A stretch of 64,000 nt of DNA from an uncultured bacterium (GCA_964562805.1 CAZLUT010000002.1:1172-65171), one strand, 5' to 3'; counted from the first letter of the stretch, positions 9,975-61,371 are shown. Made by a program: numbers and translations. The notes: generated from the letters alone by a model not told the origin.

Positions 9975-10089
9975 CCGTTATTTTTTGTATAAATGAGCGT
10001 GTTTTCTTAAAAAGTTTTGTCTGTTTTTAAAAAAAATTATAATCCGTCGCAAAAAAGTTAGTCTGAGTTGATCGAAGGAGGTCTCATTT

Positions 10090-12181: not shown

Positions 12182-12210
12182 CAAGATCTGAAATAGGGAA
12201 TGTAGTAAAT

Positions 12211-12594
12211 ATGGATAATCCAACTAATAAGCGATCAAACGTCCGAATGCTATTTCAAAATCAACTCGAATTTAAAATTTGTTCAATCAATCTCGTCTCA
12301 GAGCTTCATTTGGCAAGTTCGCGAAATATATCACAATCAGGGATGTGTTTTCGGGCCGCCTCGGCGCCCCCTTTGGGAAGTATTATTAAAATTCAGACGG
12401 ATCTTGAAACGCTAGCAAAATGTATTCAAATTGAAAACATGCTATTTGAACTAAAAGGGTGTGTTTTAGGAAAAGTTATTTGGGCTTCACCTGCCAAGGA
12501 AGACGCGTCTCTAACAGATGTGGGAGTAGTCTTTATTAAAACCGGCGAAATAGAAGTCCCCGATGTAAAGGAAGCAGTTTCTTTGGTTGCTTAA
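12211..12594 (+). CDS. Stand-alone PilZ-domain protein (putative c-di-GMP receptor)
   Basis: RxxxR motif KRSNVR and (D/N)xSxxG motif NISQSG with typical spacing. Size 127 aa. Confidence 0.55.
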   Translation: MDNPTNKRSNVRMLFQNQLEFKICSINLVSELHLASSRNISQSGMCFRAASAPPLGSIIKIQTDLETLAKCIQIENMLFELKGCVLGKVIWASPAKEDASLTDVGVVFIKTGEIEVPDVKEAVSLVA

Positions 12595-12600
12595 TTTTCA

Positions 12601-21133: not shown

Positions 21134-21159
21134 AACCCTCAGTTTTTGGATGGTGTTGA

Positions 21160-21231
21160 ATATTATTGACTATTTTTGATTATTGTTGACATTATTTTAT
21201 TAAACACTTAAAATTTCCTGAATTTTAAGTG
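21160..21231 (+). promoter_or_regulatory. Sigma-70-like promoter with repeated TATTWTTGAY boxes and a perfect 11-bp inverted repeat overlapping the -10
   Basis: ATTATTGAC, CTATTTTTGAT and TTGTTGACA boxes. -35 TTGACA at 21185-21190, 17-bp spacer, -10 TAAAAT at 21208-21213. Palindrome CACTTAAAATT-TCCTG-AATTTTAAGTG at 21205-21231. Confidence 0.45.
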
Positions 21232-21350
21232 TTCAGCTGAGACTTTGGTTGTAGAAGAGATTTAAAATTACGATAAAGAATTTTGTTTTATACTATAATC
21301 AAAAGAGTTTTATTTGAGACAAGACTAATATAAAGTTGGGAGAATTTAAG

Positions 21351-22376
21351 ATGGCTGAGTCGAAGATTAATCAGGAAGAAACATCAGGCGGGCGAGTACT
21401 CAACTCGTCAATTCAAGCAGATCCTGATGTCCCTTTCCGGAAAAAATTTGGCCCCAAGTGGGATGAGTATCGACGTAATTGGGCAGCAGCCTCTCGAATG
21501 GAATACCGTCCTGATTTTCCTCTCTTTGTTCGCTTCGAGACTAAATTTCGCTGCAATCTTCACTGTAAAATGTGTGCGCATGGCCACCCGGATCTTGAGA
21601 AGGGGTATTCGTATGACGGTGAGCTTGATTTTGATACTTATTGCCGCTTGATTGATGAGTGTGCTGAGCATGGTTGTCCTTCAATTGGAATGAATCATGC
21701 CAACGAACCGCTTCTAGACAAAGATTTAATCGAGAGAATTAATTATGCGACTAAGCGTGGAATTATGGATATCCATATGAATACCAATGCAATGTTATTA
21801 ACTGCTGAAATGTCAAAAAAGCTTCTTGATACGGGGTTAACCAGACTTTGTTTTAGTGTGGATGCGCTAACTCCCGAGACTTTTAAAAAGATCCGGGTAG
21901 ATGCTGATTATGATCTCGTTATGTCGAATATTGACACTTTTTTAAATTTACGGGCCGAGCGAAGGCAGGATCTTCCGGTGACTCGGGTTAGCCTTGTTTT
22001 ACAGGAAGATAACAAGCACGAAGTAGATGCTTTTCGCGAGCATTGGGTCAAAAAAGTTGAGTATGTAGCGATTCAAAGGTATGTTCCCATAAGCCCATTT
22101 GATCAAGAAGAGGACGATATGCGCGCTCATGCAACGTCTTTTTCACCTAAAGAAGGCGCTCAAAAGTGTTCCTATGCCTGGGAATCTGTGTTTATCCATG
22201 GCGATGGAACTGTTTTGCCGTGTGCGGCACACAGAGCTCGAAAGATTGCCGTGGGCAATATACACAAAAACACAATTCATGAAATTTGGAATTCGCCCTC
22301 GATGGAAGAGTTGCGGATGAAGCATAAAACGGGGAATTTAGAAGGCTTAAAGCTTTGCCCGACATGCATTCAATAA
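21351..22376 (+). CDS. Radical SAM enzyme with a C-terminal SPASM/twitch-like Cys cluster
   Basis: CNLHCKMC (Cx3Cx2C). C-terminal cysteines CSYAWE...GTVLPCAAH...LKLCPTC. ATG at 21351 has a GGGAGA ribosome-binding site; the track starts at a TTG at 21336. Confidence 0.7.
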   Translation: MAESKINQEETSGGRVLNSSIQADPDVPFRKKFGPKWDEYRRNWAAASRMEYRPDFPLFVRFETKFRCNLHCKMCAHGHPDLEKGYSYDGELDFDTYCRLIDECAEHGCPSIGMNHANEPLLDKDLIERINYATKRGIMDIHMNTNAMLLTAEMSKKLLDTGLTRLCFSVDALTPETFKKIRVDADYDLVMSNIDTFLNLRAERRQDLPVTRVSLVLQEDNKHEVDAFREHWVKKVEYVAIQRYVPISPFDQEEDDMRAHATSFSPKEGAQKCSYAWESVFIHGDGTVLPCAAHRARKIAVGNIHKNTIHEIWNSPSMEELRMKHKTGNLEGLKLCPTCIQ

Positions 22377-22399
22377 ATTAACAATAGGATTTAAGTACG

Positions 22400-23716
22400 A
22401 TGTCAAAAAAGAAAAAACTTGTTTATGTTCCGATGGCGGTTGATTTTATTCATCCAGGACATTTGAATATTATTAAGGAGGCAGCCGAACTCGGCGAAGT
22501 AGTAGTAGGTCTTTTTACAGACAAAGCGATTGCTTCTTATAAGAGACTGCCTTTTATGAGTTATGACCAGCGAAAAGAAGTTATTGAAAATGTGAAAGGT
22601 GTTGATCGAGTTGTGACGCAAGAAACACCTGATTATGAAGTGAATCTCAGGAAATATAAACCAGACTACATGGTGCATGGTACGGATTGGAAAAAAGGCC
22701 CTCTCAAAGAAGTTCGAGCTAAAGCGATTGATATTTTGGCTGAATGGGGTGGCGAGATGGTTGAGCCTGAGTACACGAAGGGTATCTCTTCCACAGAAGT
22801 GCATGTGCATCTTCGAACGATTGGTACTACACCGCAATTGCGTTTAGCCAAACTTCGCCGTCTTTTGGAAGTAAAAAACATGGTCCGCGTTATGGAGGCT
22901 CATAATGGTTTGAGTGCTTTAATTGCGGAAAAAGCAGAGATTAAAGATCCCGGCAAGCCAATTGCCGCATTTGATGCAATTTGGTTAAGCAGCTTAACAG
23001 AGTCAACCGCCAAAGGTAGGCCGGATATTGAATTGGTCGACCTTTCTTCCCGATCGAAAACTATTAACGATATTTTTGAAGTCACCGTAAAACCGATGAT
23101 CTTTGACGGTGATACGGGAGGTATTCCGGAGCATTTTATTTATACGGTTCGCACGCTTGAACGTCTAGGGGTTTCGGCTGTGGTGATTGAAGATAAGACA
23201 GGCCTGAAAATGAATTCGCTTTTTGGTACTGATGTGAAACAGACTCAGGATTCTATTGAAGCTTTTTGTAATAAGATTTCGCTCGGAAAGAAAGCCCAAA
23301 TCACACCGGATTTTATGATTATTGCTCGAATCGAAAGCTTGATTCTTCAAAAAGGTATGGAAGACGCCCTCAAGCGAGCAGTAGCTTATATTGAGGCGGG
23401 CGCGGATGGTATTATGATTCATAGCCGATCAAAAACACCTGATGAAGTTTTGGCTTTTTGCGCTGAATACAAAAAATTCAAAAAGAAGGTACCGTTAGTA
23501 GTTATTCCGACAACATATGCCCAAGTTTCTGAAAAAGAATTAATTGACGCTGGAGTTAATGTGGTGATTTATGCCAACCATCTTCTTCGCGCAGCATACC
23601 CGGCAATGGTTAAAACGGCAGAATCTATTTTGCATCATGGCCGTTCAATGGAGGCGTCGAACGATTTTTGTATGCCAGTATCTGAGATGCTGGAGATTCT
23701 AGCTAATAAATACTAA
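22400..23716 (+). CDS. pepM: Fusion of a cytidylyltransferase (TagD-like HxGH) and phosphoenolpyruvate mutase
   Basis: N-terminal FIHPGHLNII...GISSTEVH, a TagD-like CTP-transferase pattern. The C-terminal domain has the isocitrate-lyase/PEP-mutase fold with the PEP-mutase-specific motif EDKTGLKMNS (EDKxxxxxNS). Confidence 0.8.
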   Translation: MSKKKKLVYVPMAVDFIHPGHLNIIKEAAELGEVVVGLFTDKAIASYKRLPFMSYDQRKEVIENVKGVDRVVTQETPDYEVNLRKYKPDYMVHGTDWKKGPLKEVRAKAIDILAEWGGEMVEPEYTKGISSTEVHVHLRTIGTTPQLRLAKLRRLLEVKNMVRVMEAHNGLSALIAEKAEIKDPGKPIAAFDAIWLSSLTESTAKGRPDIELVDLSSRSKTINDIFEVTVKPMIFDGDTGGIPEHFIYTVRTLERLGVSAVVIEDKTGLKMNSLFGTDVKQTQDSIEAFCNKISLGKKAQITPDFMIIARIESLILQKGMEDALKRAVAYIEAGADGIMIHSRSKTPDEVLAFCAEYKKFKKKVPLVVIPTTYAQVSEKELIDAGVNVVIYANHLLRAAYPAMVKTAESILHHGRSMEASNDFCMPVSEMLEILANKY

Positions 23717-23741
23717 CGCACCACCTTGTTAGGAAGTTTTT

Positions 23742-24881
23742 GTGTTAAATTGTGCTGATTTTTTTAGGGTCTTAACTCAAAAAGGCGTTCAATTTTATTG
23801 CGGTGTTCCTGATTCTTTGCTCAAATCCTTTTGTGCTTATTTATCTGACGCACTCCCTGAAGATAAAAATATAATTGCCGTTAATGAAGGAGCTGCGGTT
23901 GCGTTGGCTTCCGGAGTTTATATGGCGACAGGACAACCAGCCGTTGTTTATATGCAGAATTCGGGAGAAGGGAATGCAGCGAATCCTCTTCTCTCGCTTG
24001 CCGATTCCAAAGTATACAGTATCCCTATGTTGCTATTAGTGGGATGGCGTGGAGAGCCTGGAGTGAAGGATGAGCCACAGCATATTAAGCAGGGAGAGGT
24101 TACTTTAGCGCTTTTAGATGCGATGGGTATTCGGTATGAGATACTTCCATCTGATGTAAAATTGGCCGAAGCGGCTATCCAGAGAGCTTTTGAATATATG
24201 AATTTGAAGAAAGCTCCTTATGCCCTAATTATTCGTAAGGACACTTTTGAGCCTTACGCTTCTACTGCGACACGCGCCGAAAATAACTACTCACTTAGCC
24301 GTGAAGATGCGATACAAGAAATTATTCAATTTACAAAAAACATGCAAAATCAGCCCGCTTTTGTATCCACTACCGGAATGACTTCTCGAGAACTTTTTGA
24401 AAACCGAGCCAAGAATAGAGAATCGTTAAGCTCTGATTTTCTTACGGTAGGCTCAATGGGTCACGCATCTTCGATTGCCTTAGGACTTGCATTAAATTTA
24501 CCCAATCGGGATGTTTTTTGTGTTGATGGAGATGGTGCTATGCTGATGCATATGGGGAGCTTAGCGACCATTGGCAGCTCCGGTGTTAAGAATTTTAAAC
24601 ATATCCTGATTAATAACGGAGCACATGACTCCGTAGGCGGTCAGCCTACTTGCGGGTTTAAAGTCAATTTCCGAGAGATTGCCAAGGCTTGTGGTTACAC
24701 CAATACTTGGTTAGCAACGAATAAGGATGAATTAAAAGAATGTTTGAAGCAAATGGTTACAAAAGAAGATTTAGAGCTTTTGGAAATTCGAGTAAAAAAA
24801 GGAGCTAGGAAAGATTTGGGTCGCCCCACTTCCTCGCCAGGAGAGAATAAAATTCAATTTATGGAATATTTAAAAGGTTAA
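23742..24881 (+). CDS. ppd: Phosphonopyruvate decarboxylase (TPP-dependent)
   Basis: N-terminal GVQFYCGVPDSLLKSF. TPP-binding motif GDGAMLMHMGSLATIG...NNGAHDSVGGQ. Size roughly 379 aa, immediately downstream of pepM. GTG start. Confidence 0.8.
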   Translation: MLNCADFFRVLTQKGVQFYCGVPDSLLKSFCAYLSDALPEDKNIIAVNEGAAVALASGVYMATGQPAVVYMQNSGEGNAANPLLSLADSKVYSIPMLLLVGWRGEPGVKDEPQHIKQGEVTLALLDAMGIRYEILPSDVKLAEAAIQRAFEYMNLKKAPYALIIRKDTFEPYASTATRAENNYSLSREDAIQEIIQFTKNMQNQPAFVSTTGMTSRELFENRAKNRESLSSDFLTVGSMGHASSIALGLALNLPNRDVFCVDGDGAMLMHMGSLATIGSSGVKNFKHILINNGAHDSVGGQPTCGFKVNFREIAKACGYTNTWLATNKDELKECLKQMVTKEDLELLEIRVKKGARKDLGRPTSSPGENKIQFMEYLKG

Positions 24882-24886
24882 GATCG

Positions 24887-25603
24887 ATGATAAATGTAAT
24901 TGCTATAGATGGTCCTTCATATGTTGGTAAAAGCACAGTAGCTCGTTCGTTGGCTGCCTTATTGGGTTATGACTTTATTAATACTGGCCATATGTTTCGC
25001 GTGGTCGCACGAGAATGTCTTTTAAGAAATCTTTCTGTAAAGAAGGAAGGTGAGGTTGCAGATCTGGCGCATTGTCTTGATATTCAGTTTGAAAGTAATG
25101 AAAAAGGCAACTCGAGAACTCTGGTTAACGGTGAAGATTTAACCGAAGCTTTAGAGGGGCATGAGATTATGCTTTTAGCTGCCAAAGTGGCTCAGATTGG
25201 AAAGTTGCGGGATATTTTAACTGAGAAGCAGCGCTTGTATGCCGACAAAAAGATGATTGTCATGGAGGGCCGAGACATTGGCTCAATTGTTTTTCCTGAT
25301 GCAAAGTGGAAATTTTTTATTACAGCTTCGATGGAAATTCGTGCTAAGCGAATGTATAAAATTATGAATGAAGCTGAGAAGAAGAATTGCTCTGATTACC
25401 ATACGTTGATTCCAAAGCTAGAAGAGATTGATGAGGCCGACCGCAATCGCAAGATTTCGCCGCTTAGAATCGCCGATGATGCAATTATTTATGATAATTC
25501 TGACAGTCCTAGTGAACATGAAGATTCGTTGATTTTAAAATACTACATTACACACACGGACGAGATTGTTAAAAATACAGAAATTCTGAAGTTTAAAAAA
25601 TAA
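24887..25603 (+). CDS. cmk: Cytidylate kinase
   Basis: IAIDGPSYVGKSTVARSLA P-loop, GRDIGSIVFPDAKWKFFITAS and RDRNRKISPLRIADDA align closely with canonical Cmk. Confidence 0.75.
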   Translation: MINVIAIDGPSYVGKSTVARSLAALLGYDFINTGHMFRVVARECLLRNLSVKKEGEVADLAHCLDIQFESNEKGNSRTLVNGEDLTEALEGHEIMLLAAKVAQIGKLRDILTEKQRLYADKKMIVMEGRDIGSIVFPDAKWKFFITASMEIRAKRMYKIMNEAEKKNCSDYHTLIPKLEEIDEADRNRKISPLRIADDAIIYDNSDSPSEHEDSLILKYYITHTDEIVKNTEILKFKK

Positions 25604-25613
25604 GGAAAGATTC

Positions 25614-26480
25614 ATGGAAACTATTAAAGAGCTTAAAGTGATCTGTCAAACAACAGCGCAAAAAGACATTTCAAATGTTTATATGCGCTATATTTGCCGT
25701 CCGATTTCAATTCGTATCACACGCTTTCTTATTCCAACAGCAGTCACTCCGGACCAAGTTAGCTTTGCGATGATTGTTACGGGTGTTATTGCGAGCCTTA
25801 TATTTTTAATAGCGCATCCTATAAGTTTTTTCCTGGCAGCGCTCCTTCTTCAGTTTTGGTATATTTTAGATTGTGTCGATGGAGAATTGGCTCGTTATCG
25901 CTCCTATTCCAAAAATAAAGAAGTGATCCAGGATAAGGCTACTTTGCCGATAACGGGTGCTTATTGGGATTATCTCAATCATTACATTGTTCACGGGCTT
26001 GTACCGCTTACGATTTCTTACGGATTGTTTCTTAAGACACAAAATTCGTTTTGGATTTTACTCGGATTTGTCACCTCGACTTTCCAAGTGATGTTGCTTG
26101 CTATTCACGATACGCAATGCCGCGCCTATCTAACTAAAATCCGGAAAACACTTCCGACTCATGTATTGAATGTTAAATCGGCGTCGGAAGTGGATGAGGC
26201 TGCGCCAGAAAAAAAGAAAATGAAAGGAATAATGTTTTTGAAGCTGCCATTTGTGACCGTCCATTATCTTTCGACTTATCCTTCGGTGATGAATGTGATA
26301 ACTGTGCTTGCTCTTACGTCGTGCTTAACAGGATTTGGGAGTGATTTTAGAGGTTTCTTTCTTTGGTTTTATGCGTTGGGATCAGGTGTTGTTTTTTTAG
26401 GTTTAGCTTATAAGCTGCTCCATGACCGTGGTCTCGATAAGGAATTTGATAAAGAATTTTATTTAGAAAAACGCACCTAA
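25614..26480 (+). CDS. CDP-alcohol phosphatidyltransferase-family membrane protein
   Basis: Polytopic membrane protein with the DxxDGxxAR start of the CDP-OH phosphotransferase motif (LDCVDGELARYRS). Confidence 0.55.
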   Translation: METIKELKVICQTTAQKDISNVYMRYICRPISIRITRFLIPTAVTPDQVSFAMIVTGVIASLIFLIAHPISFFLAALLLQFWYILDCVDGELARYRSYSKNKEVIQDKATLPITGAYWDYLNHYIVHGLVPLTISYGLFLKTQNSFWILLGFVTSTFQVMLLAIHDTQCRAYLTKIRKTLPTHVLNVKSASEVDEAAPEKKKMKGIMFLKLPFVTVHYLSTYPSVMNVITVLALTSCLTGFGSDFRGFFLWFYALGSGVVFLGLAYKLLHDRGLDKEFDKEFYLEKRT

Positions 26481-26533
26481 GATGAATTTAAAATTTCCGC
26501 CACCATCAAAAAACCAATCTCCTTTTCTTTTGC

Positions 26534-27574
26534 GTGAAAAATAAAAAAATAAAATCAATTAACTGCCTTTTTTTGTTGGATGCTGGTCCAGGAATAGGGA
26601 TGGGACACTTGAGGAGATGTCTTGTTTTGGCCGAAAAGCTGAAGCAAAAAGGTGTTAAAAATATATGTTTTGCAACTAAAACGCCGAATGATATTTCAGT
26701 TTTGGTTGGAGCAAAATTCCCAATTATTCATTTGCCTTCTACTGACAGTCTAAAAAATAGAACCGATCTTTTGCAGTCAAAAATAAAAGATTACCGGACA
26801 AAACTTATTATTGTGGATAGTTACAAGATAGCGGTCAATTCACTTCGAGCGATAGAGAAGAGAATAGCACCTGTAATTGTGTTAGATGATTATTTGCACT
26901 TATCTCATTATCCGGTTTCCGGAATTATTAACTACAACCTTGGCGCTGAAAAGCGTACTTATAAATGTGAGTCAGAAACCAGATTGTTTCTTGGAGCGAA
27001 ATACGCCCTTATTTCCGGAGAATTTATCAAAGAAAAAAAGTCAGCTCGGGTTCAAGGGATAGGGCGTCGGTTATTTGTGTCTTTAGGCGCAAATCCAGCG
27101 GGAAGCTTGCTCAAAAAAACGCTTAAAGCGATTGGGAACATAGAAGAAAATCTGAAGATTTCTTTGGTTTTGAGTCCTTGTTATCCGAATAGAGATAAGT
27201 ATAAAAGCGGCAAGGTTTCTCTGGTTGCTCCGAACGCTATCGCCCGGGCAATGAAGCGGTGCGACTTTGCCTTAAGTGCTGCCGGGGTTACAAGTTATGA
27301 GCTTGTATTTATGAGGATTCCAACGCTATTGTTTGTATTAGCTCGGAACCAAAGCCGAGTTGCAGAAGAAATGCAGCGTTGTGGCGCGGCTAAAAATTTA
27401 GGTTGGTTAAAAACTATTTCAACTAGTAAACTAACAGTTGAAATCAGCAATTTTGTGAATAGTAAAATGAAAGTGGCTGGCAAAAAAGTTACTAAGTTTA
27501 ATAAGATTGACGGTAAGGGTTCAGATCGTCTCGCTAGTTTTATTATTTCTGAATATTTGAGGGGGAAAAAGTGA
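26534..27574 (+). CDS. pseG: PseG-like UDP-sugar hydrolase (GT28-like; pseudaminic acid pathway)
   Basis: IGMGHLRRCLVLAEK matches the PseG/SpsG G-x-G-H-x-x-R motif. By-eye alignment with C. jejuni PseG along the length (LIIVDSYKIA, GAKYALISGEF, FVSLGANP). GTG start. Confidence 0.65.
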   Translation: MKNKKIKSINCLFLLDAGPGIGMGHLRRCLVLAEKLKQKGVKNICFATKTPNDISVLVGAKFPIIHLPSTDSLKNRTDLLQSKIKDYRTKLIIVDSYKIAVNSLRAIEKRIAPVIVLDDYLHLSHYPVSGIINYNLGAEKRTYKCESETRLFLGAKYALISGEFIKEKKSARVQGIGRRLFVSLGANPAGSLLKKTLKAIGNIEENLKISLVLSPCYPNRDKYKSGKVSLVAPNAIARAMKRCDFALSAAGVTSYELVFMRIPTLLFVLARNQSRVAEEMQRCGAAKNLGWLKTISTSKLTVEISNFVNSKMKVAGKKVTKFNKIDGKGSDRLASFIISEYLRGKK

Positions 27575-28305
27575 AGATTGTTGCTACTATCGAAGCGAGG
27601 ATGGGTTCCAGCCGGCTTCCTGGAAAGATTCTTAAAAATATTTTGGATAAGCCGACTCTAGAGCTGCTCGTTGAGCGGGTTAGAAAATCAAAGCACATTG
27701 AGCAGGTGGTTGTAGCCACTACGGTTGATCCGAGTGACAACATCACCGAAGAAAATTGCCGCAAGATCGGTATTGATTGTTTCCGAGGAAGCTCCGAAGA
27801 TGTTTTGAATAGAGTGCTTCAAACAGCCAAAGCATATCAGGCTGATTTAATCGTAGAATTAACAGGCGACTGCCCGCTTTTAGATCCAGAAATTATTGAT
27901 AGTGTTATCGAAAAGTATCTTAGCGGTTCATTTGATTATGTAAGCAATGTTTTGGAAAGAACTTATCCGAGAGGCTTGGATACCCAGGTTTTTTCAACGG
28001 CTGTTTTAGAGAAAGTGTCTCAAATCACTCAGGATCCGGCTGACAGAGAAAACGTTTCGCTTTATATCTATGAAAACCCCGAGCAATTTAAGCTAGGGAA
28101 CGTTAAAGCTTCCTCGGAGCATAACAGGCCGGATTTAAGATTAACCGTTGATACGGTTGAGGATTTTAAATTAATTAGTTCGATCTATAATGAGTTGTAT
28201 CCAAAAAACAAAGACTTTAATTTGTCGGATGTGATTAAGCTTTTAAATCAAAAGCCTGAACTCAGCAAGCTTAACGCGGATGTTCAGCAGAAGAAAGCAA
28301 GATGA
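27571..28305 (+). CDS. pseF: CMP-nonulosonic acid synthetase (acylneuraminate cytidylyltransferase family; PseF/SpsF-like)
   Basis: KIVATIEARMGSSRLPGKILKNI and VVVATT. Size 244 aa. GTG start after a GAGGGGGA ribosome-binding site. Confidence 0.7.
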   Translation: MKIVATIEARMGSSRLPGKILKNILDKPTLELLVERVRKSKHIEQVVVATTVDPSDNITEENCRKIGIDCFRGSSEDVLNRVLQTAKAYQADLIVELTGDCPLLDPEIIDSVIEKYLSGSFDYVSNVLERTYPRGLDTQVFSTAVLEKVSQITQDPADRENVSLYIYENPEQFKLGNVKASSEHNRPDLRLTVDTVEDFKLISSIYNELYPKNKDFNLSDVIKLLNQKPELSKLNADVQQKKAR

Positions 28306-29348
28306 GTGGAGTTGATAAAAAATCAAAAAAACTAAGAGCCGGCATCGTTGGATGCGGTCGAATTGCAAGTACGTTTGATTCGGATCCTAAGCGGAAGAAT
28401 ATTGCTACTCATGCCGGTGCTTATACAGCGTCACCTGGTGTTGACTTGGTAGCGGCATGTGATCTCGATGAGAAAAAAGTGGCAGCCTTTGGCGAGCGCT
28501 GGAAGGTTAAAAATTTATATACCAACTTTAATAAAATGCTTAAAAGTGAGAAGTTGGATATTCTAAGTCTCTGCACTTGGGCTGGATCTCACTTTCAATT
28601 GGCAAAAACTGCGATTAATAGCGGCGTAAAAGCGGTGTTTTGTGAGAAGCCTATAACAGTTTCTTTGAGTGAGGCGGATCAGCTGATTAAATTAGCCAAA
28701 CGCAAAAAAGTTGTATTTGCGGTTAATCACTCGAGGAGATGGGATTCAGGTCTTCAAAAAATAAAGTCTGCGATTAATCAGGGTAAGTTGGGTGAAATTC
28801 GCCAGGTGAGCTGTTATTACACTGCTGGCATTTCAAACACTGGAACTCACTTATTTGACTTATTAAATTTTTTCTTTGGTGATGCGAAACAGGTAATTGG
28901 CGCTGTTAGCAATTTAGTTGATAAAAAGGGTGCTGATCCAACTGTTTCAGGATTAATAGAGTATAAGAGCGGAACGTTGGTTTCTGTTCAGGGATTGAAT
29001 GTGAATGATTATTTAATTTTTGAGATAGATATTTATGGCTCGAAAGGAAGGATTCGCATTTGTAATAGCGGTTTTAAATCTCAGGTCTGGAAAGTTTTGC
29101 CAAGTGATTATTTTTCAGGCTACAAAGAGCTTAAAGAGGTAAAGTCATCTTTCGATTTATCCAAAAAAGAACAGATGAAAAACGCCGTCAAAGATATAAT
29201 GCAATGCATAAAAACAAAAAAGAAACCGTCCTCAAGCGCTAAGGATGGCATGAAAGCACTGGAGCTTATTTGCGCCATGAAGCTCTCATGCAAAAAAGGG
29301 ACCAAAGTAGATTTGCCGCTTAAAAATAGAAATATTACAACGGAGTAA
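28302..29348 (+). CDS. Gfo/Idh/MocA-family NAD(P)-dependent sugar oxidoreductase
   Basis: LRAGIVGCGRIAS Rossmann N-terminus and EKP motif CEKPIT. ATGA overlap with the upstream gene. Confidence 0.75.
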   Translation: MSGVDKKSKKLRAGIVGCGRIASTFDSDPKRKNIATHAGAYTASPGVDLVAACDLDEKKVAAFGERWKVKNLYTNFNKMLKSEKLDILSLCTWAGSHFQLAKTAINSGVKAVFCEKPITVSLSEADQLIKLAKRKKVVFAVNHSRRWDSGLQKIKSAINQGKLGEIRQVSCYYTAGISNTGTHLFDLLNFFFGDAKQVIGAVSNLVDKKGADPTVSGLIEYKSGTLVSVQGLNVNDYLIFEIDIYGSKGRIRICNSGFKSQVWKVLPSDYFSGYKELKEVKSSFDLSKKEQMKNAVKDIMQCIKTKKKPSSSAKDGMKALELICAMKLSCKKGTKVDLPLKNRNITTE

Positions 29349-29351
29349 AAG

Positions 29352-30590
29352 ATGACTGATCCAATCAGAACAAAGCCATTCCCCCAACACCCCACTTTTG
29401 ATGAAGAGGCAAAGCGTGGAGTTCTTGATGTGTTGTCATCGGGCGTGCTTTCCGGATTTGTAGCTAATTCGGGGCCTAATTTTTTAGGTGGTCCGAAAGT
29501 CAAGGAATTAGAAGCAGCTTTCTGCGATTATTTTGGCGTAAAATATGCGATGACCGTTAATTCTGCAACGGCGGGGCTGCACGCTGCGGTTGCTGCGTGT
29601 GGCATTGGGCCGGGGGATGAGGTGATCGTGCCTCCTTATACGATGTCAGCTTCCGCGAGTGCGGTATTGATGCAGAGTGCTGTGCCGCTGTTTGCAGACA
29701 TTCAAGATGATATCTATTGCGTTGATCCAAAATCTATTGAAGAGAGAATTACATCTCGAACCAAAGCTATTATTGTGGTTCATTTATTTGGGCATCCGGC
29801 AGACATGGACTCTATTTCAAAAATCGCCAAAAAACACGGCTTAAAAATTATTGAGGACTGTGCTCAGGCTCCCGGGGTCAAATATAAAAATAAATTTGTC
29901 GGAACCATCGGTGATATTGGAGTTTTTAGCTTCAATCAGCATAAAACTATTACAACGGGTGAAGGCGGCGTTGTTATTACCAACAGTGAAGAAGCTGCTT
30001 TAAAAGTGCGCCTAGTTCGTAATCATGGCGAAGCCGTTTTGGAAAACATGGAAATAAATGATTATTCAAACACTCTCGGCTGGAATTATCGAATGACCGA
30101 GCTGGAGGCGGCCGTTGGCATTACTCAATTTAAGAAGCTCGACACCCTAACGAAACACAAACAAGAGTTGGCGAATGTTCTAAATGAAAAGCTTAAGAAA
30201 TTTGAAGAGTTAAGTTTGCCGGTAGCACTGGATGGATGTAGTCATGGCTATTTTGTATATCCAATGAAGTGGCGCGCATCTAAAACAGGTCTGTCGCGCG
30301 ATCAAATAGTCGAAGCTTTAAATAAGGAGGGAATCCCTTTTGGCAAAGGCTATGTTCGGCCTCTTTATCTTTTGCCGCTTTTTCAAAAGCAGATATGTTT
30401 TGGCAGTAACGGCTGGCCTTTTACATCAATACCTGAGAAGGAGAGGCAGAAATATAAAAAAGGACTTTGTCCTGTTGCTGAGAGGATGTACGAAAAGGAG
30501 CTTATGCTGACAGGTGTTTGTTATTGGCCGGTTACGAAAGAAGATATCATGGATGTTGTAAAGGCATTCGAGAAGATATTAAAAAAATGA
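29352..30590 (+). CDS. pseC: DegT-family PLP aminotransferase, PseC-like (UDP-4-keto-6-deoxy-sugar aminotransferase)
   Basis: FCDYFGVKYAMTVNSATAGLHAA, FSFNQHKTITTGEGG and NYRMTELEAAVG. Confidence 0.75.
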   Translation: MTDPIRTKPFPQHPTFDEEAKRGVLDVLSSGVLSGFVANSGPNFLGGPKVKELEAAFCDYFGVKYAMTVNSATAGLHAAVAACGIGPGDEVIVPPYTMSASASAVLMQSAVPLFADIQDDIYCVDPKSIEERITSRTKAIIVVHLFGHPADMDSISKIAKKHGLKIIEDCAQAPGVKYKNKFVGTIGDIGVFSFNQHKTITTGEGGVVITNSEEAALKVRLVRNHGEAVLENMEINDYSNTLGWNYRMTELEAAVGITQFKKLDTLTKHKQELANVLNEKLKKFEELSLPVALDGCSHGYFVYPMKWRASKTGLSRDQIVEALNKEGIPFGKGYVRPLYLLPLFQKQICFGSNGWPFTSIPEKERQKYKKGLCPVAERMYEKELMLTGVCYWPVTKEDIMDVVKAFEKILKK

Positions 30591-31651
30591 AAAGAAAAAA
30601 ACAGATTAAAATCAATAATAAGCCGATAGGTGATGGGGCACCCGTTTTTGTCATAGCGGAAGCCGGTTCTAATCACAATGGAAGTCTAAGGCAAGCAAAG
30701 AAACTTATTGATATTGCTGCTAAGGCGGGGGCGGACGCAGTTAAGTTTCAGACGTTTTCTGCAGATAAATTGTATTCGAAAAAAACCCCGATGATGAGTT
30801 ATCTCAGAAAAAACAAGCTGGTAAAGAAAAAAGAAACGGTTTGGGATCTTCTAAAAAAACTTGAAATTCCGAGAGTTTGGCATTCCGAATTAGCTAAGTA
30901 TTGCCGTTTAAAAAAAATATTTTTTCTTTCGACTCCATTTGATCTAAAGGCTGTTGATCAATTGGAAGCGGTTAATATGGCTGCTTATAAAATCGCCTCA
31001 TATGAAATAACCCATCTTCCTCTCTTGGAGAAAGTTGCAAAAACAGGGAAGCCGATTATTCTGTCGACCGGCATGGCAGATTTGGATGATATTAGGGTTG
31101 CATTAAAAACTATATATAGAACAGGAAATAAAAAAGTTGTTCTTTTGCATTGCGCTATCAACTACCCACCCAAATTTGAAGATCTTCATTTAAAAGCGAT
31201 GCAGACGATAAGGAACGAATTTAAGGTGCCCGTTGGTTTTTCAGATCATACGATGGGACTGACATCCGATGTTGCTGCTGTTGCTTTAGGGGCATGCGTA
31301 ATTGAAAAACATTATACGATTAGCCGGAAGCTCGAAGGCCCTGACCATTCTTTTTCATTGGAGCCTGACGAATTAAAAAACATGATCCAAGGTATCCGCG
31401 ACACCGAACGTGCTTTGGGCCTACCAATTAAACGAGCGACAAAAGCGGAAAAGGAAATGTATCGTCTTGGCCGGAGAAGTTTGGTTGCGGCCTGCAGCAT
31501 TCCAAAGGGAGCCAAAATATCTCGTAGGATGATCGAAGTAAAAAGACCGGGCTTTGGAATTCCAACCAAAGATATGAATCAAGTTATTGGCCGGCTAGCA
31601 TCTCGGGATATCGAAACAGACGATATTCTTTCGTGGAAGATGATTCGGTAA
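30587..31651 (+). CDS. pseI: Nonulosonic acid synthase (NeuB/PseI family) with a C-terminal SAF domain
   Basis: IGDGAPVFVIAEAGSNHNGSLRQAKKLIDIAAKAGADAVKFQTF. ATGA overlap start at 30587; the track's 30518 start lies inside the upstream gene. Confidence 0.85.
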   Translation: MKRKKQIKINNKPIGDGAPVFVIAEAGSNHNGSLRQAKKLIDIAAKAGADAVKFQTFSADKLYSKKTPMMSYLRKNKLVKKKETVWDLLKKLEIPRVWHSELAKYCRLKKIFFLSTPFDLKAVDQLEAVNMAAYKIASYEITHLPLLEKVAKTGKPIILSTGMADLDDIRVALKTIYRTGNKKVVLLHCAINYPPKFEDLHLKAMQTIRNEFKVPVGFSDHTMGLTSDVAAVALGACVIEKHYTISRKLEGPDHSFSLEPDELKNMIQGIRDTERALGLPIKRATKAEKEMYRLGRRSLVAACSIPKGAKISRRMIEVKRPGFGIPTKDMNQVIGRLASRDIETDDILSWKMIR

Positions 31652-31750
31652 TTTAACCGACGTCTCTTTGTTGCTGTCGGCTGGTTTTTAGGTAACAGAT
31701 TAATCAAAATCATAAATATATTGGTTTTTAAAGATTTATTTTGATAAGAC

Positions 31751-31790
31751 TTGACTATTATTGACAACTATAAGCTATTTTTGATAAGAT
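31751..31790 (+). promoter_or_regulatory. Second copy of the TTGACTATT(A/T)TTGA promoter box pair upstream of the HTH-pseB sub-operon
   Basis: TTGACTATTATTGACAACTATAAGCTATTTTTGATAAGAT. Its first 13 nt match 21166-21178 at 12 of 13 positions, and the CTATTTTTGAT box is shared. Confidence 0.4.
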
Positions 31791-31839
31791 TTATACGGTC
31801 TCAAAAATAACATAAGAGAATATAGAGGGTTAGTATTAT

Positions 31840-32100
31840 ATGGATGAAATCAAAGAAAATGCTGTTTATACGCCAGCAGAAACTCAAAAAATTTTAAAAA
31901 TCAGTGCAAGCACCATGACTCGCCTCATTAAAAAAGGATTGATTCATGCGGCCAAAATAGGGGGGCAATACCGCATTTTAGGTAAAGAAATTTTAAGAGC
32001 GATGTCGCCAAAATTGGAAGATAAAGTAGGAAAAATATACAACAAAGGCCGGCAATGGGTTCATGAAGACGATGATCCAAACAGAAAGGTCAAAAAATGA
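31840..32100 (+). CDS. Small excisionase-family/MerR-like helix-turn-helix DNA-binding protein
   Basis: TPAETQKILKISASTMTRLIKKGLIHAAKIGGQYRI matches the HTH_17/excisionase pattern. Size 86 aa. Its stop overlaps the pseB start as ATGA. Confidence 0.55.
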   Translation: MDEIKENAVYTPAETQKILKISASTMTRLIKKGLIHAAKIGGQYRILGKEILRAMSPKLEDKVGKIYNKGRQWVHEDDDPNRKVKK

Positions 32101-33095
32101 AAGATTTTTTCAAAAATAAGACAATTTTAGTCACGGGCGGCACAGGATCGTTTGGTAAAAAATTCATTAAAATGACTCTCGAAAACTTTTCACCAAAAAA
32201 AGTAATTATTTATTCCAGGGACGAAATGAAACAGTGGGAAATGCAGGATGAGTATAAAGAGTACGATAAAAGAAATGTGCTTAGGTATTTTATAGGCGAT
32301 GTTAGAGACCGAGAGCGTTTAGAGAGGGCATTCCACGGTGTTGATTATGTGGTGCATGCTGCCGCAACTAAAATTGTACCGACAGCAGAATACAATCCAA
32401 TTGAATGCATCAAGACCAACGTCAATGGCGCTATTAACGTGATTGATGCTGCAATTGACCAAAAGGTAAAAAGAGTCGTAGCTCTTAGCACCGACAAGGC
32501 AAGTAATCCTATTAATTTGTATGGTGCTACCAAGTTATGTTCCGATAAATTGTTTGTGGCTGCAAACGCATACACAGGAGACCAAGATACTCGTTTGTCT
32601 GTTGTTAGATATGGGAATGTGATGGGTAGTCGCGGCTCTATCATTCCTTTTTTTAGGTCTATCAAAAGCAAAAATAAGATTCCAATTACAGATATAAGGA
32701 TGACACGATTCATGATCACACTTGAGCAGGGTGTGGAATTGGTTTGGCTGGCGTTGCATGAAGCAATCGGTGGTGAGATCTATGTGCCTAAAATCCCTTC
32801 GATGAAGGTGGTTGATATTGCCAAAGGAATCGCACCAAACGCTGAACACAATATTATAGGGATCCGACCTGGAGAGAAGATACATGAATCGCTGATTAGC
32901 GAAGAAGATGCTCGAAATACTTATGAATATAAGGATTGTTACAAGATCCTGCCGGCTATTTATGATTGGCATGAATGTGCGACTCGAATAGGTGACGGAA
33001 AGAGGTGTGAGGAGGGTTTTTCTTATGCAAGCGGTAACAATTCCAAATGGATGACAAGTGAAGAACTGTCTAACTGGATGGAGAGGGAATATTAA
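32097..33095 (+). CDS. pseB: UDP-GlcNAc 4,6-dehydratase/5-epimerase (PseB/FlaA1/CapD family)
   Basis: KTILVTGGTGSFGKKFIKM, YxxxK (YGATKLCSDK). Size 332 aa. Confidence 0.85.
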   Translation: MKDFFKNKTILVTGGTGSFGKKFIKMTLENFSPKKVIIYSRDEMKQWEMQDEYKEYDKRNVLRYFIGDVRDRERLERAFHGVDYVVHAAATKIVPTAEYNPIECIKTNVNGAINVIDAAIDQKVKRVVALSTDKASNPINLYGATKLCSDKLFVAANAYTGDQDTRLSVVRYGNVMGSRGSIIPFFRSIKSKNKIPITDIRMTRFMITLEQGVELVWLALHEAIGGEIYVPKIPSMKVVDIAKGIAPNAEHNIIGIRPGEKIHESLISEEDARNTYEYKDCYKILPAIYDWHECATRIGDGKRCEEGFSYASGNNSKWMTSEELSNWMEREY

Positions 33096-52981: not shown

Positions 52982-52997
52982 TCGGTTTTTTCCCTGT

Positions 52998-53339
52998 ATG
53001 ATTTCTGAAATCCAAGATTTTTGTAAAAAATGTCAAGAGTGCTGTAAGTGGGAAGGTTATGTCTACGTAAGCCAGTTCCGCATCGAAGAAATTTCAAAAT
53101 TTTTAAATATGCCGGCTGATAAAATTATGGATGATCATTGTGAGTTAATAGGAAAACAATTAGTTCTTAAAGGTCATGGTCACGAAGATTGTGTTTTTCT
53201 GGGTAATGGGGGCTGCGCGATTTATCCGGTCCGCCCCATGCAATGCCGAACCTTTCCGGAAGGCTGGAAGGAAGGGAATGGGGCCGAAGATTGCCCCTTG
53301 GTTAAAAAAGGTTTTTTATCTCCGAAAAAGGCCGGATAA
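52998..53339 (+). CDS. YkgJ-family CxxCxxCC zinc/iron-chelating domain protein
   Basis: CKKCQECCKWEG and C-terminal CAIYPVRPMQCRTFP. Internal ATG chosen to avoid overlap with the upstream gene. Confidence 0.6.
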   Translation: MISEIQDFCKKCQECCKWEGYVYVSQFRIEEISKFLNMPADKIMDDHCELIGKQLVLKGHGHEDCVFLGNGGCAIYPVRPMQCRTFPEGWKEGNGAEDCPLVKKGFLSPKKAG

Positions 53340-53341
53340 TT

Positions 53342-53608
53342 TTGGCTAAGGAGAAGCGCTCGGCCAAATATTTTGTTTATATCGTAAAGTGTTCTGATGG
53401 ATCGTTTTACACCGGTTATACAAATAACCTAGAGAATCGCATCAAAGCTCATAATAGCGGGCGAGGAGCAAAATGTTTGCGCGGCAAGCTTCCTATAAAG
53501 CTCGTCTATTCTGAAAAACACAAAACTCTCTCATCTGCTTTAAAGGTTGAGTACCGAATAAAAAAAATGTCACATCAAGAAAAGGCTGAAAAAGCAAAAA
53601 ATATTTAA
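53342..53608 (+). CDS. GIY-YIG domain protein (UPF0213/YhbQ-like)
   Basis: YFVYIVKCSDGSFYTGYTNNLENRIKAHN. Confidence 0.7.
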   Translation: MAKEKRSAKYFVYIVKCSDGSFYTGYTNNLENRIKAHNSGRGAKCLRGKLPIKLVYSEKHKTLSSALKVEYRIKKMSHQEKAEKAKNI

Positions 53609-53656
53609 CGAGCCTTCCGTTGTTTCTCAGGGTTTAATGTGTAGAATAACTGTCTT

Positions 53657-56447: not shown

Positions 56448-56503
56448 TCTTCTGTCTGATCCTCGTAGATTGAAGACACAGAAGATTCAGGGTAAGAAAG
56501 GAG

Positions 56504-56615
56504 AAGAAATACCACTCAAAACAATTAGCGCACTTTGCGGAGGCGAGGAGATCCTCTGCCATTTTAATGGCAGATAGCTCCGAGCGAAGCGGCGCGTTTT
56601 GAGTGGTATTTCTTC
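56504..56615 (+). other. Structured element with a 20-bp perfect stem (GAAGAAATACCACTCAAAAC / GTTTTGAGTGGTATTTCTTC) and a 72-nt loop with internal hairpins; candidate ncRNA or regulatory element
   Basis: Perfect 20-nt inverted repeat. Inner palindrome CTGCCATTTTAATGGCAG and CGGAG...CTCCG pairing. Located in the 223-bp gap upstream of lipA. Confidence 0.4.
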
Positions 56616-56670
56616 CCCTTCCTCAACTCGATGACACTTCAATACTCTCTCTTGACCTTTTTTATCTCTT

Positions 56671-60067: not shown

Positions 60068-60130
60068 TACTAACCACTAACGACTAACGACCAACGACTA
60101 GTCACTAACGACCAAATACTAAAGACTAAA
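60068..60130 (+). repeat. Nine tandem heptamer repeats, consensus NACTAAC
   Basis: TACTAAC CACTAAC GACTAAC GACCAAC GACTAGT CACTAAC GACCAAA TACTAAA GACTAAA, abutting the murI start. Confidence 0.6.
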
Positions 60131-60135
60131 AATTG

Positions 60136-60951
60136 ATGAGCAAAAAAAGTAAGATCAATTTTTCCATCGGAGTATTTGACTCTGGACTTGGCGGACTTAC
60201 CGTTGCCCGGGCTATTCGACGTTTACTCCCTGCGGAAAATATTTGTTATTTCGGAGATATCGCACGGCTCCCTTACGGTATTAAATCCAAGAAGCAAATT
60301 ATTGAATTCTCCAAGCAAAATACCAATTTTCTTCTCGGAAAAAAAATCAAAGCACTTGTTATCGCGTGTAATTCATCGGCAAGCACCAGCCTGGATGTTC
60401 TCAAAAGAAAGTATTCTCTCCCCATTATTGACGTGATTACACCGGCGGCTCATTTAGCCGCAAGCGTTACTACGAATCACCGGATTGGCATTATTGGAAC
60501 CGCGGCAACTATTGAAAGCAAGAGCTATCAAAAGGAAATTCATCGTCTTAATAGACGAATCCAAATTAAAGAGATGGCATGTCCTCTTTTTGTACCCCTG
60601 GTAGAGGCCGGCTGGCTTGATAACTCGATCACACATCTAATTATAGAAAAATATATAAAGTCACTCTTACGTTCCAAAATTGATACTTTAATTTTAGGCT
60701 GCACCCACTACCCCTTACTGCACCGGGCTATTAAAAGGGTTGCGGGCCCTGGTGTTGCCTTGATTGATTCCGCCCCCTCAACCACAGAAAGGTTAAGAGA
60801 TGTTTTAAAACGAAGAGGTCTTTTAAAAGAGGGTGTGGGATCGCATGGAAGTCTAAAGATTTATGTCTCAGACCTGCCCCGAAATTTTCTGAAAATAGGC
60901 GAAAGATTTCTCGGGCAAAAAATTACTCATATTCGTACCGTTCCTATTTAA
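60136..60951 (+). CDS. murI: Glutamate racemase
   Basis: IGVFDSGLGGLTVARAI, CNSAS and GCTHYPLL. Confidence 0.9.
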   Translation: MSKKSKINFSIGVFDSGLGGLTVARAIRRLLPAENICYFGDIARLPYGIKSKKQIIEFSKQNTNFLLGKKIKALVIACNSSASTSLDVLKRKYSLPIIDVITPAAHLAASVTTNHRIGIIGTAATIESKSYQKEIHRLNRRIQIKEMACPLFVPLVEAGWLDNSITHLIIEKYIKSLLRSKIDTLILGCTHYPLLHRAIKRVAGPGVALIDSAPSTTERLRDVLKRRGLLKEGVGSHGSLKIYVSDLPRNFLKIGERFLGQKITHIRTVPI

Positions 60952-60985
60952 CCACTAACCACTATCCACTAGTCACTAACCACTG
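60951..60985 (+). repeat. Five tandem heptamer repeats ACCACTA (same family, shifted phase), followed by TTATAAT
   Basis: ACCACTA ACCACTA TCCACTA GTCACTA ACCACTG. A TTATAAT -10-like hexamer lies 7 nt upstream of the queD ATG. Confidence 0.55.
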
Positions 60986-60999
60986 TTATAATCCTCCCC

Positions 61000-61371
61000 A
61001 TGTACGAAGTTAGCGTTAAATCAGAAGTAAAATCAGGGCATCAATTGCGTTCCTATGACGGAAAGTGTGAGCGTCTTCACGGACATAACTGGCAAGTAGA
61101 GGTTACGGCAAGTGGCGATACTCTTGATAAATTGGGTGTCATTATTGATTTTCATATTTTAAAAGAAAAATTAGATAGGGTCTTGGCCCCTTTTGATCAT
61201 ACTCGAATGAATTCTGTGCCTCCTTTTGATCAAATAAATCCTTCGGCTGAAAATTTAGCCAATTTTGTATGTGAAAAATTAATGAAAGAGCCCGAAATTT
61301 CAAAAGTTTGCCGGATTAAAAAAGTGGTTGTTGTTGAGGACGAGGGTTTTACAGCTTCTTTTACGCCATAA
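61000..61371 (+). CDS. queD: 6-carboxy-5,6,7,8-tetrahydropterin synthase
   Basis: CERLHGHNWQVEV (CxxxHGH). Size 123 aa. Confidence 0.85.
   Translation: MYEVSVKSEVKSGHQLRSYDGKCERLHGHNWQVEVTASGDTLDKLGVIIDFHILKEKLDRVLAPFDHTRMNSVPPFDQINPSAENLANFVCEKLMKEPEISKVCRIKKVVVVEDEGFTASFTP

Follow-up and report, generated by a model that had tools for sequence, protein, structure and literature searches.

The DNA analysed here, a stretch of 64,000 nucleotides referred to below as the window, is part of a 104-kb marine metagenome contig that derives from the Omnitrophota, a widespread phylum whose members are mostly uncultured. Two consecutive operons on its plus strand are the subject of this analysis. Operon 1 (21351-31651), annotated with Pfam and NCBIfam, is a run of tightly packed, co-directional genes for a radical SAM/SPASM protein, a CTP-transferase-PEP mutase fusion, a phosphonopyruvate decarboxylase-like TPP enzyme, a cytidylate kinase-like and a CDP-alcohol transferase-like protein, followed by PseG, a CMP-sugar transferase, an oxidoreductase, a DegT aminotransferase and a NeuB synthase. 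Operon 2 opens with the gene for an 86-aa HTH_17 protein (31840-32100, plus strand; Pfam PF12728, E = 1.6e-12), continues with pseB, which encodes the inverting UDP-GlcNAc 4,6-dehydratase (32097-33095, plus strand; TIGR03589, 528 bits against a cut-off of 408) and whose start overlaps the HTH stop by 4 nt, and goes on to GNAT acetyltransferases. The pseudaminic-acid pathway is thus split, with PseG, PseF-like, PseC-like and NeuB proteins encoded in operon 1 and PseB and GNAT in operon 2, and co-regulation of the two operons therefore makes biological sense.

The gap before the radical SAM gene (site 1) begins at the stop codon of another DegT aminotransferase gene (21133) and is 217 bp long up to the ATG at 21351, the likely start codon, which is served by the ribosome-binding site GGGAGA; the length of 202 bp given in the original prediction is correct only to a TTG codon. 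The promoter proposed there was borne out. Promoter P1 (21186-21214, plus strand) consists of the -35 hexamer TTGACA (21186-21191), a 17-bp spacer and the -10 hexamer TAAAAT (21209-21214), matches the consensus at 11 of 12 positions, and is the top sigma-70-like site in a consensus scan of the 13 kb between 20000 and 33000. Its start is predicted near 21221. A putative alternative promoter overlaps P1 (21166-21195, plus strand; TTGACT, 18 bp and a TG-extended CATTAT, with 9 of 12 matches with the TG in the same scan) and would start near 21202, at the foot of a palindrome that is described below. A possible proximal -10 (TATACTATAAT, 21290-21299, plus strand) lacks a good -35; a weak MAFFT alignment places it beside the -10-like TATACT/TATAAAAT, 50-65 nt upstream of orthologous radical SAM genes. 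Two other readings were set aside. A Bacteroidota-type promoter (TAnnTTTG), prompted by TATTTTTG, was dropped in view of the strong Shine-Dalgarno sites and of the phylum, Omnitrophota, and a known riboswitch or leader was rejected when Rfam returned nothing at gathering thresholds for the whole window and only noise at E <= 1 for the two gaps.

The -35 hexamer of P1 is at the same time the last box of a repeat array. Array 1 (21156-21195, plus strand) is made up of four phased decamers, TTGAATATTA, TTGACTATTT, TTGATTATTG and TTGACATTAT. Array 2 (31741-31790, plus strand) lies in the gap before the HTH gene (site 2) and is made up of TTGATAAGAC, TTGACTATTA, TTGACAACTA, a non-box decamer at 31771, and TTGATAAGAT. 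What the original prediction had described as TATTWTTGAY boxes is this one-directional decamer repeat, written in another register and held in exact 10-bp phase: TTGA recurs at 10-bp steps at 21156, 21166, 21176 and 21186, and again at 31741, 31751, 31761 and 31781. Scored with a position matrix that was trained on relatives only (WTGAC(T/A)A(C/T)TA, about 9 bits), the boxes of array 1 reach 9.1, 10.3, 7.5 and 6.7 bits, and the successive decamers of array 2 reach 4.0, 12.4, 13.7, -7.6 (the non-box decamer) and 5.3 bits.

The claim that the two operons have a non-random cis-element in common was upheld by each count that we made. Runs of at least three phased TTGA tetramers occur at the two sites only, on either strand of the 64 kb, with 0.035 expected from Markov simulations, and at periods of 7-14 other than 10 the 64 kb contain no such run. 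With the relatives-only matrix, a search of both strands of the 64 kb finds arrays of at least three boxes at two places only, 21156-21195 and 31741-31770, while simulations give an expectation of 0.05; array 1 is the sole array in the window with at least three boxes above 4 bits. Tandem Repeats Finder, run independently, reported a repeat of period 10 at 21156-21196, with 4.2 copies and the consensus TTGACTATTA. The shared boxes behave in the same way: TTGACTATTWTTGA is present at 21156, 21166 and 31751 only (three matches in the window against 0.16 expected), and the exact matches of CTATTTTTGAT are those at 21170 and 31775.

At site 2 the array is also built into the promoter. The promoter of the HTH-pseB operon (31761-31790, plus strand) reads TTGACA, 18 bp, TGaTAAGAT; its -35 is a box, its TG-extended -10, TAAGAT, lies inside another box, and it has 10 of 12 matches with the TG in the consensus scan. 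The layout, in which one box provides the -35 and the box 20 bp further on provides the -10, is identical to that of the alternative promoter at site 1, and a -35 and a -10 separated by 16-18 bp, as in sigma-70 promoters, are present at both sites.

To footprint site 1, we fetched 14 orthologous radical SAM loci from peat and wetland metagenomes, with amino-acid identities of 82-92%. Neither the array nor the palindrome is present in these 14 operons, and their upstream regions align poorly with that of the window. A 13-mer common to the window and one of the loci compared, L100 (AAAATTTCCTGAA), and a common TGTTTTATA near the proximal -10 were considered too short to interpret.

The picture differs at the HTH gene. 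We counted boxes within 220 bp upstream of this gene in 71 regions, namely those of 70 relatives and that of the window. At least two phased boxes are present in 59 of the 71, at least three in 43 and at least four in 21; several of the 12 regions that have no gene-adjacent array have one at the start of the operon instead. Three relatives that were fetched later display the same pattern. The contigs of the same strain that were found through exact protein matches (L001-L004) are 99.96-99.99% identical to the window and were discarded as uninformative for comparison. Since the matrix had been trained on phased boxes, an independent test was run with the bare tetramer TGAC. Its density is 16.5 per kb in the upstream regions and 3.2 per kb elsewhere, and it occurs upstream 173 times on the gene strand against 20 times on the opposite strand. 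Spacings of 10, 20 and 30 bp between tetramers were observed 69, 45 and 23 times, whereas any other spacing was observed at most twice. The hexamer TGACTA is found in 44 of 70 upstream regions, with 1.0 expected.

Beyond the regions adjacent to the HTH gene, arrays are rare. A search of both strands of 1.1 Mb of the relatives' loci yielded eight others, all on the gene strand. The seven that were examined lie in gaps that open co-directional runs of genes with the HTH gene further downstream, and the eighth (in L070) abuts the HTH start codon. Unrelated loci (464 kb) contain one weak array. The original prediction had named frequent occurrence of the motif away from promoters as one finding that would count against it; the scan of the 64 kb and of the 1.1 Mb gave no such result. 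Examples are the array of L016 (TTGACTACCA ATGACTACTG ATGACGTCTA TTGACATGTT) and that of L037, in which ten perfect copies of ATGATAACTA stand upstream of the HTH gene. The array, its 10-bp register and its strand bias are retained across genomes of 40-56% GC. Judged by these comparisons of sequence, the decamer array is a conserved cis-element of Omnitrophota glycan operons.

Two further features of the arrays were noted in individual relatives. The number of boxes is 14 in L037 (HTH gene at 9998) and 6 in L027, two loci that have the same HTH core over the 45 residues compared, which suggests that the decamer repeat expands and contracts between close relatives. In L013 and L014 a box is followed, just upstream of the HTH gene, by its inverted copy (ATGACATGTCAT, TGACTAGTCA), so that head-to-head pairs occur too.

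In the relatives, as in the window, the HTH gene invariably stands at the head of sugar-nucleotide operons. Directly after it, 30 loci carry a PseB-like gene, 11 NeuB, 10 an SDR dehydratase and 9 DegT; the remaining loci have a UDP-sugar dehydrogenase, a sulfotransferase or another gene in this place. This following gene often overlaps the HTH stop or begins within a few bases of it. One relative, L173 (8665-10001), carries a 385-aa DegT gene with 64.5% DNA identity to that of the window over 485 bp, followed directly by the array, the HTH gene and pseB. By this comparison, the 10.6-kb phosphonate/pseudaminic-acid block of the window (21134-31839), which is flanked by arrays, represents an insertion or rearrangement specific to the lineage. 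Together with the identity of 82-92% between its radical SAM protein and those of the array-less peat and wetland loci, it suggests that a module was inserted or transferred.

The arrays are closely integrated with predicted promoters in the relatives as well. In 21 of the 42 arrays with at least three boxes, a good -10 follows one TTGAC box at a distance of 16-18 bp. This -35-like box begins with T in 20 of the 21 cases, while the other boxes mostly begin with A; between zero and four boxes lie upstream of it and between zero and three downstream. The box two steps downstream often reads TGATAnnnT and so forms a TG-extended -10, of which site 2 is an example. In L027, L031 and L037, which form one clade, the array begins in the spacer and runs far beyond the start site.

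The core of the box resembles a sigma-70 -35, and part of the signal could be promoter architecture. In its full form this alternative holds that the arrays are intrinsic promoter elements that need no dedicated protein, that is, stacked -35-like hexamers, phased T-tracts, curved DNA or an UP-like element. The core TTGAC is indeed the -35 consensus, some boxes mimic a TG-extended -10, and the arrays of the window are rich in T-tracts. However, most boxes start with A, G or C instead of T, box positions 8-10 (CTA) are conserved though they are not read by sigma-70, and the exact register and strand bias persist over the range of GC content given above. Other promoters in the window, moreover, have no such array. 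We consider an explanation by promoter architecture alone to be improbable.

A second alternative is that the arrays are bound by another regulator, for example a response regulator of the OmpR/PhoB type, and that the HTH gene is merely one of its targets. Regulators of this type use tandem direct repeats of 10-11 bp that overlap the -35, and the arrays described here, which extend from the -35 upstream, resemble that geometry. There are differences. OmpR and PhoB are receiver-domain regulators, and their sites as a rule stand in for a poor -35; the -35 found here is consensus, and the boxes of one clade lie past the start. Those boxes, far downstream of the -10, could not be used by an activator of the OmpR type. 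Of the 71 upstream regions of the HTH gene, 59 carry an array, the rest of the 1.1 Mb has almost none, and no response-regulator gene is conserved beside the arrays among the called neighbours in the relatives. We give this alternative little credence.

These observations direct attention to the HTH protein itself, the candidate regulator named in the original prediction, and its candidacy is strengthened by the comparison of about 70 Omnitrophota genomes, in most of which the decamer array precedes the orthologue of this gene. The protein has 1309 homologues, with identities of 65-99% among the 120 matches listed; few of those 120 are named, and the names given are Omnitrophica or Omnitrophota. 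When one genome per GTDB species was scanned, relatives turned up in 338 species. The best 80 loci encode proteins that are 61-83% identical and belong nearly all to the Omnitrophota, with a few from Auribacterota or loosely labelled bins. The family is compact, forming only 52 clusters (50% identity) at E <= 1e-10. Across it a C-terminal stretch, LSPxLEDKVGKxYNKGRxWxH, is invariant; this tail of about 30 residues has no domain match. It corresponds to residues 53-86 (31996-32097 in the window), is modelled with low confidence, and may have a role in oligomerisation or in binding a partner.

The structure predicted with AF2 is reliable over the core (pLDDT of about 81 at residues 10-55) and poor over the tail. 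In a Foldseek search the top PDB match was BldC bound to DNA (6amk_B; TM 0.81, rmsd 1.5 A), and the core also matched the excisionase Pukovnik Xis (4j2n; TM 0.81). Identity in the structural alignments with BldC is 26-31% over about 49 residues (28% for the best match). A search of PDB sequences with the family profile returned no match at E <= 1 except a spurious one to dynein, and so did not detect homology to BldC. The architecture is nonetheless that of BldC, a single winged HTH with no coiled-coil dimerisation domain and no effector domain, to which the tail of about 30 residues is added. Among protein families, the excisionase model TIGR01764 scores 27.0 bits, below its cut-off of 28.8, and the best NCBIfam match, to MamR (NF040990, E = 2e-11), reaches 44 bits where the cut-off is 100, and the protein therefore does not belong to that family.

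Proteins of the BldC/Xis type assemble head to tail, as cooperative multimers, on direct repeats whose number varies, and they can regulate transcription (PMC5859096, PMC12266134). Excisionases and other recombination directionality factors (RDFs) form filaments on phased direct repeats, and D29 Gp36 and Apl are transcription repressors as well (PMC12266134). The repeat unit of BldC is 9 bp, AATTxxxx(C) (PMC5859096). The Omnitrophota protein resembles BldC of Streptomyces (6amk, 6ama), its best structural match, in that both are small, single-domain winged HTH proteins associated with direct-repeat promoter sites. It differs in its repeat, which is 10 bp long with a TGAC core instead of the 9-bp AATTxxxxC, in its conserved tail of 30 residues, and in its candidate target, a glycan operon, where BldC controls developmental genes. 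With the excisionases and RDFs (lambda and Pukovnik Xis, L5/D29 Gp36, Apl; TIGR01764) it has the fold and the Pfam HTH_17 domain in common, yet it is encoded at the head of a conserved chromosomal operon, where there is no integrase, att site or mobile-element context. MamR of the magnetosome island is likewise a small HTH_17 protein encoded inside a large operon, in a different genomic context. The arrangement also recalls JUMPStart/ops with RfaH and, in the capsule loci of Bacteroides, UpxY/UpxZ, in which a cis-element and the gene for a small regulator head polysaccharide operons; these regulators act on elongation through NusG-like proteins, whereas here a DNA repeat array stands at the promoter and the regulator is a winged HTH protein. 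A search of the literature found nothing on this HTH regulator or its decamer sites.

The likeness to excisionases raises the possibility that the HTH_17 protein is itself an RDF and that the repeats are architectural sites for rearrangement, as in phase variation of a glycan locus. Its score falls just under the excisionase cut-off, Xis proteins bind phased direct repeats, and the number of boxes differs between close relatives that have the same HTH core (6 and 14). We nevertheless regard this as highly improbable. No integrase, invertase or recombinase was found among the scanned ORFs of at least 150 aa in the window or among the called neighbours in the relatives, a result on which a mobile-element reading of the window was also rejected. 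All of the arrays found share the orientation of the HTH gene, so that no inverted state was captured, and the context is a conserved operon head in the chromosomes of hundreds of species.

The HTH_17 protein probably binds the decamer arrays, because array and gene travel together across the phylum and because the predicted fold matches that of proteins that bind direct repeats. A hint in the same direction comes from covariation between wing and box in one clade, a single event, in which the wing sequence is RTGRAG (AAKVG in the others) and boxes of the TGATAA type are used. By its modelled fold and by analogy, we take the system to work as a filament of the BldC/Xis type on direct repeats; the protein does not belong to the BldC family at the level of sequence, nor is it, by context, an excisionase.

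We therefore propose, with moderate confidence, that the HTH_17 protein binds phased decamers built into the sigma-70-type promoters of both operons and regulates them. The sequences show the arrays, how conserved, strictly phased and strand-biased they are, and how closely they are linked to the HTH gene; from this and from the fold predicted for the protein we infer the binding, its cooperativity and the direction of regulation as follows. Monomers with a BldC/Xis-like winged helix would stack head to tail on successive decamers, binding cooperatively. The -35 (TTGACA) is itself one of the boxes, and a second box would serve as the TG-extended -10 at site 2, so that occupancy of the array would govern the access of RNA polymerase. 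The HTH protein would regulate its own operon (HTH-pseB-GNAT and the genes that follow) and, in this genome, also the upstream radical SAM-pepM-ppd-pseG/F/C/I operon, and would thereby couple both halves of the pathway for the pseudaminic-acid and phosphonate glycan. Arrays lie on both sides of the promoter, which is easier to reconcile with a repressor than with an activator, and repression by occlusion would be the more economical reading because the boxes of one clade lie downstream of the -10.

The palindrome at site 1 does not belong to this scheme. The inverted repeat CACTTAAAATT-N5-AATTTTAAGTG noted in the original prediction is perfect and proved to be longer than reported: it extends to arms of 13 nt (21203-21215 and 21221-21233), giving a perfect 13+5+13 palindrome (21203-21233), AACACTTAAAATT-TCCTG-AATTTTAAGTGTT, that spans the -10 of P1 and the predicted start. 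It is the longest perfect spaced inverted repeat detected by an inverted-repeat scan of the window, is single in the window even when three mismatches are allowed, and folds as single-stranded DNA with -10.7 kcal/mol (z = -8.5). Elsewhere it occurs only in the contigs of the same strain. In 68 relatives the palindrome was absent, the longest perfect inverted repeats having arms of at most 9 nt (median 5). Only part of the duplication that had been claimed upstream of the HTH-pseB operon was found, since the boxes recur there and the palindrome does not. The arms are unlike the decamer boxes, and a search with one arm as a half-site returned 15 matches with at most two mismatches, against 8 expected, with no promoter association. 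An intrinsic terminator was rejected because the stem is A/T-rich and no T-run follows it. We conclude that the palindrome is a separate, lineage-specific feature, real and statistically unusual, that lies outside the conserved promoter design.

That the palindrome is the operator of a dimeric repressor specific to the phosphonate/pseudaminic-acid operon is possible, if doubtful; a hairpin at the 5' end of the mRNA, a remnant of rearrangement and chance are the alternatives. The claim of a palindromic repressor operator stands insofar as a perfect inverted repeat with 13-nt arms, the longest in 64 kb, has its centre over the -10 and start of the top-scoring promoter. It does not stand insofar as the repeat is neither conserved nor repeated at related promoters (site 2, the 68 relatives and the orthologous radical SAM operons), and the scanned genes gave no candidate for a cognate dimeric regulator, the only transcription factor nearby being the HTH_17 protein, whose boxes are unrelated to the arms. 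"Operator" remains a guess because the palindrome is unique to site 1. For a hairpin speaks the alternative promoter, whose start would place the palindrome at the 5' end of the transcript, and for a remnant of rearrangement speaks L173, which has no block between DegT and the HTH gene. The significance of the palindrome is lessened by a perfect inverted repeat of 12 nt that lies inside a coding region.

The implication of the arrays is that a decamer of about 9 bits in strict 10-bp arrays and a highly conserved protein of about 85 aa form a candidate protein-site pair. The pair is tied to operons for sugars of the pseudaminic and legionaminic type, here also with phosphonate decoration, and of all cell-surface molecules such glycans are the likeliest to influence host attachment and recognition by phages. 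If the proposal is true, it extends head-to-tail stacking of the BldC/Xis type from development and recombination to the control of glycan operons. The sites, with 2-14 repeats, offer a natural series for studies of cooperative filament formation, and the matrix is ready for use in the annotation of such promoters in metagenome-assembled genomes.

A broader reading, which we offer as speculation and hold to be rather unlikely, is that the pair constitutes a hitherto undescribed switch for surface-glycan operons throughout the Omnitrophota and Auribacterota, in which a filament of the HTH protein and sigma-70 would compete for the same bases. The boxes themselves would be built from -35-like and extended -10-like sequence, expression would be tuned as the repeat expands or contracts (3-14 copies between close relatives), and the tail would link the filament with the pathway, conceivably by way of PseB, the product of the gene that overlaps the HTH stop in the window, or of a nucleotide-sugar product.

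Other features of the window were recorded in passing. Tandem repeats of the heptamers ACTAACG/CCACTAA at 60069-60129 (8.7 copies) and 60949-60984 (5.1 copies) precede an ORF at 60133-60951 and a QueD-like ORF near 61001, and the second run ends directly at TGTTATAAT; these runs may be another promoter element built from repeats. Between genes for YjeF_N and lipoyl-synthase-like proteins, a long and very stable hairpin at 56490-56630 is closed by the perfect 20-nt inverted repeat GAAGAAATACCACTCAAAAC ... GTTTTGAGTGGTATTTCTTC, folds as RNA with -70 kcal/mol (z = -7.4) and has no Rfam match. The stretches at 52982-53656 and 12182-12600, which appear intergenic in a list of ORFs of at least 150 aa, are not truly so, as each contains a shorter coding sequence; that near 53400-53620 looks, by eye, like a small protein of the GIY-YIG type.
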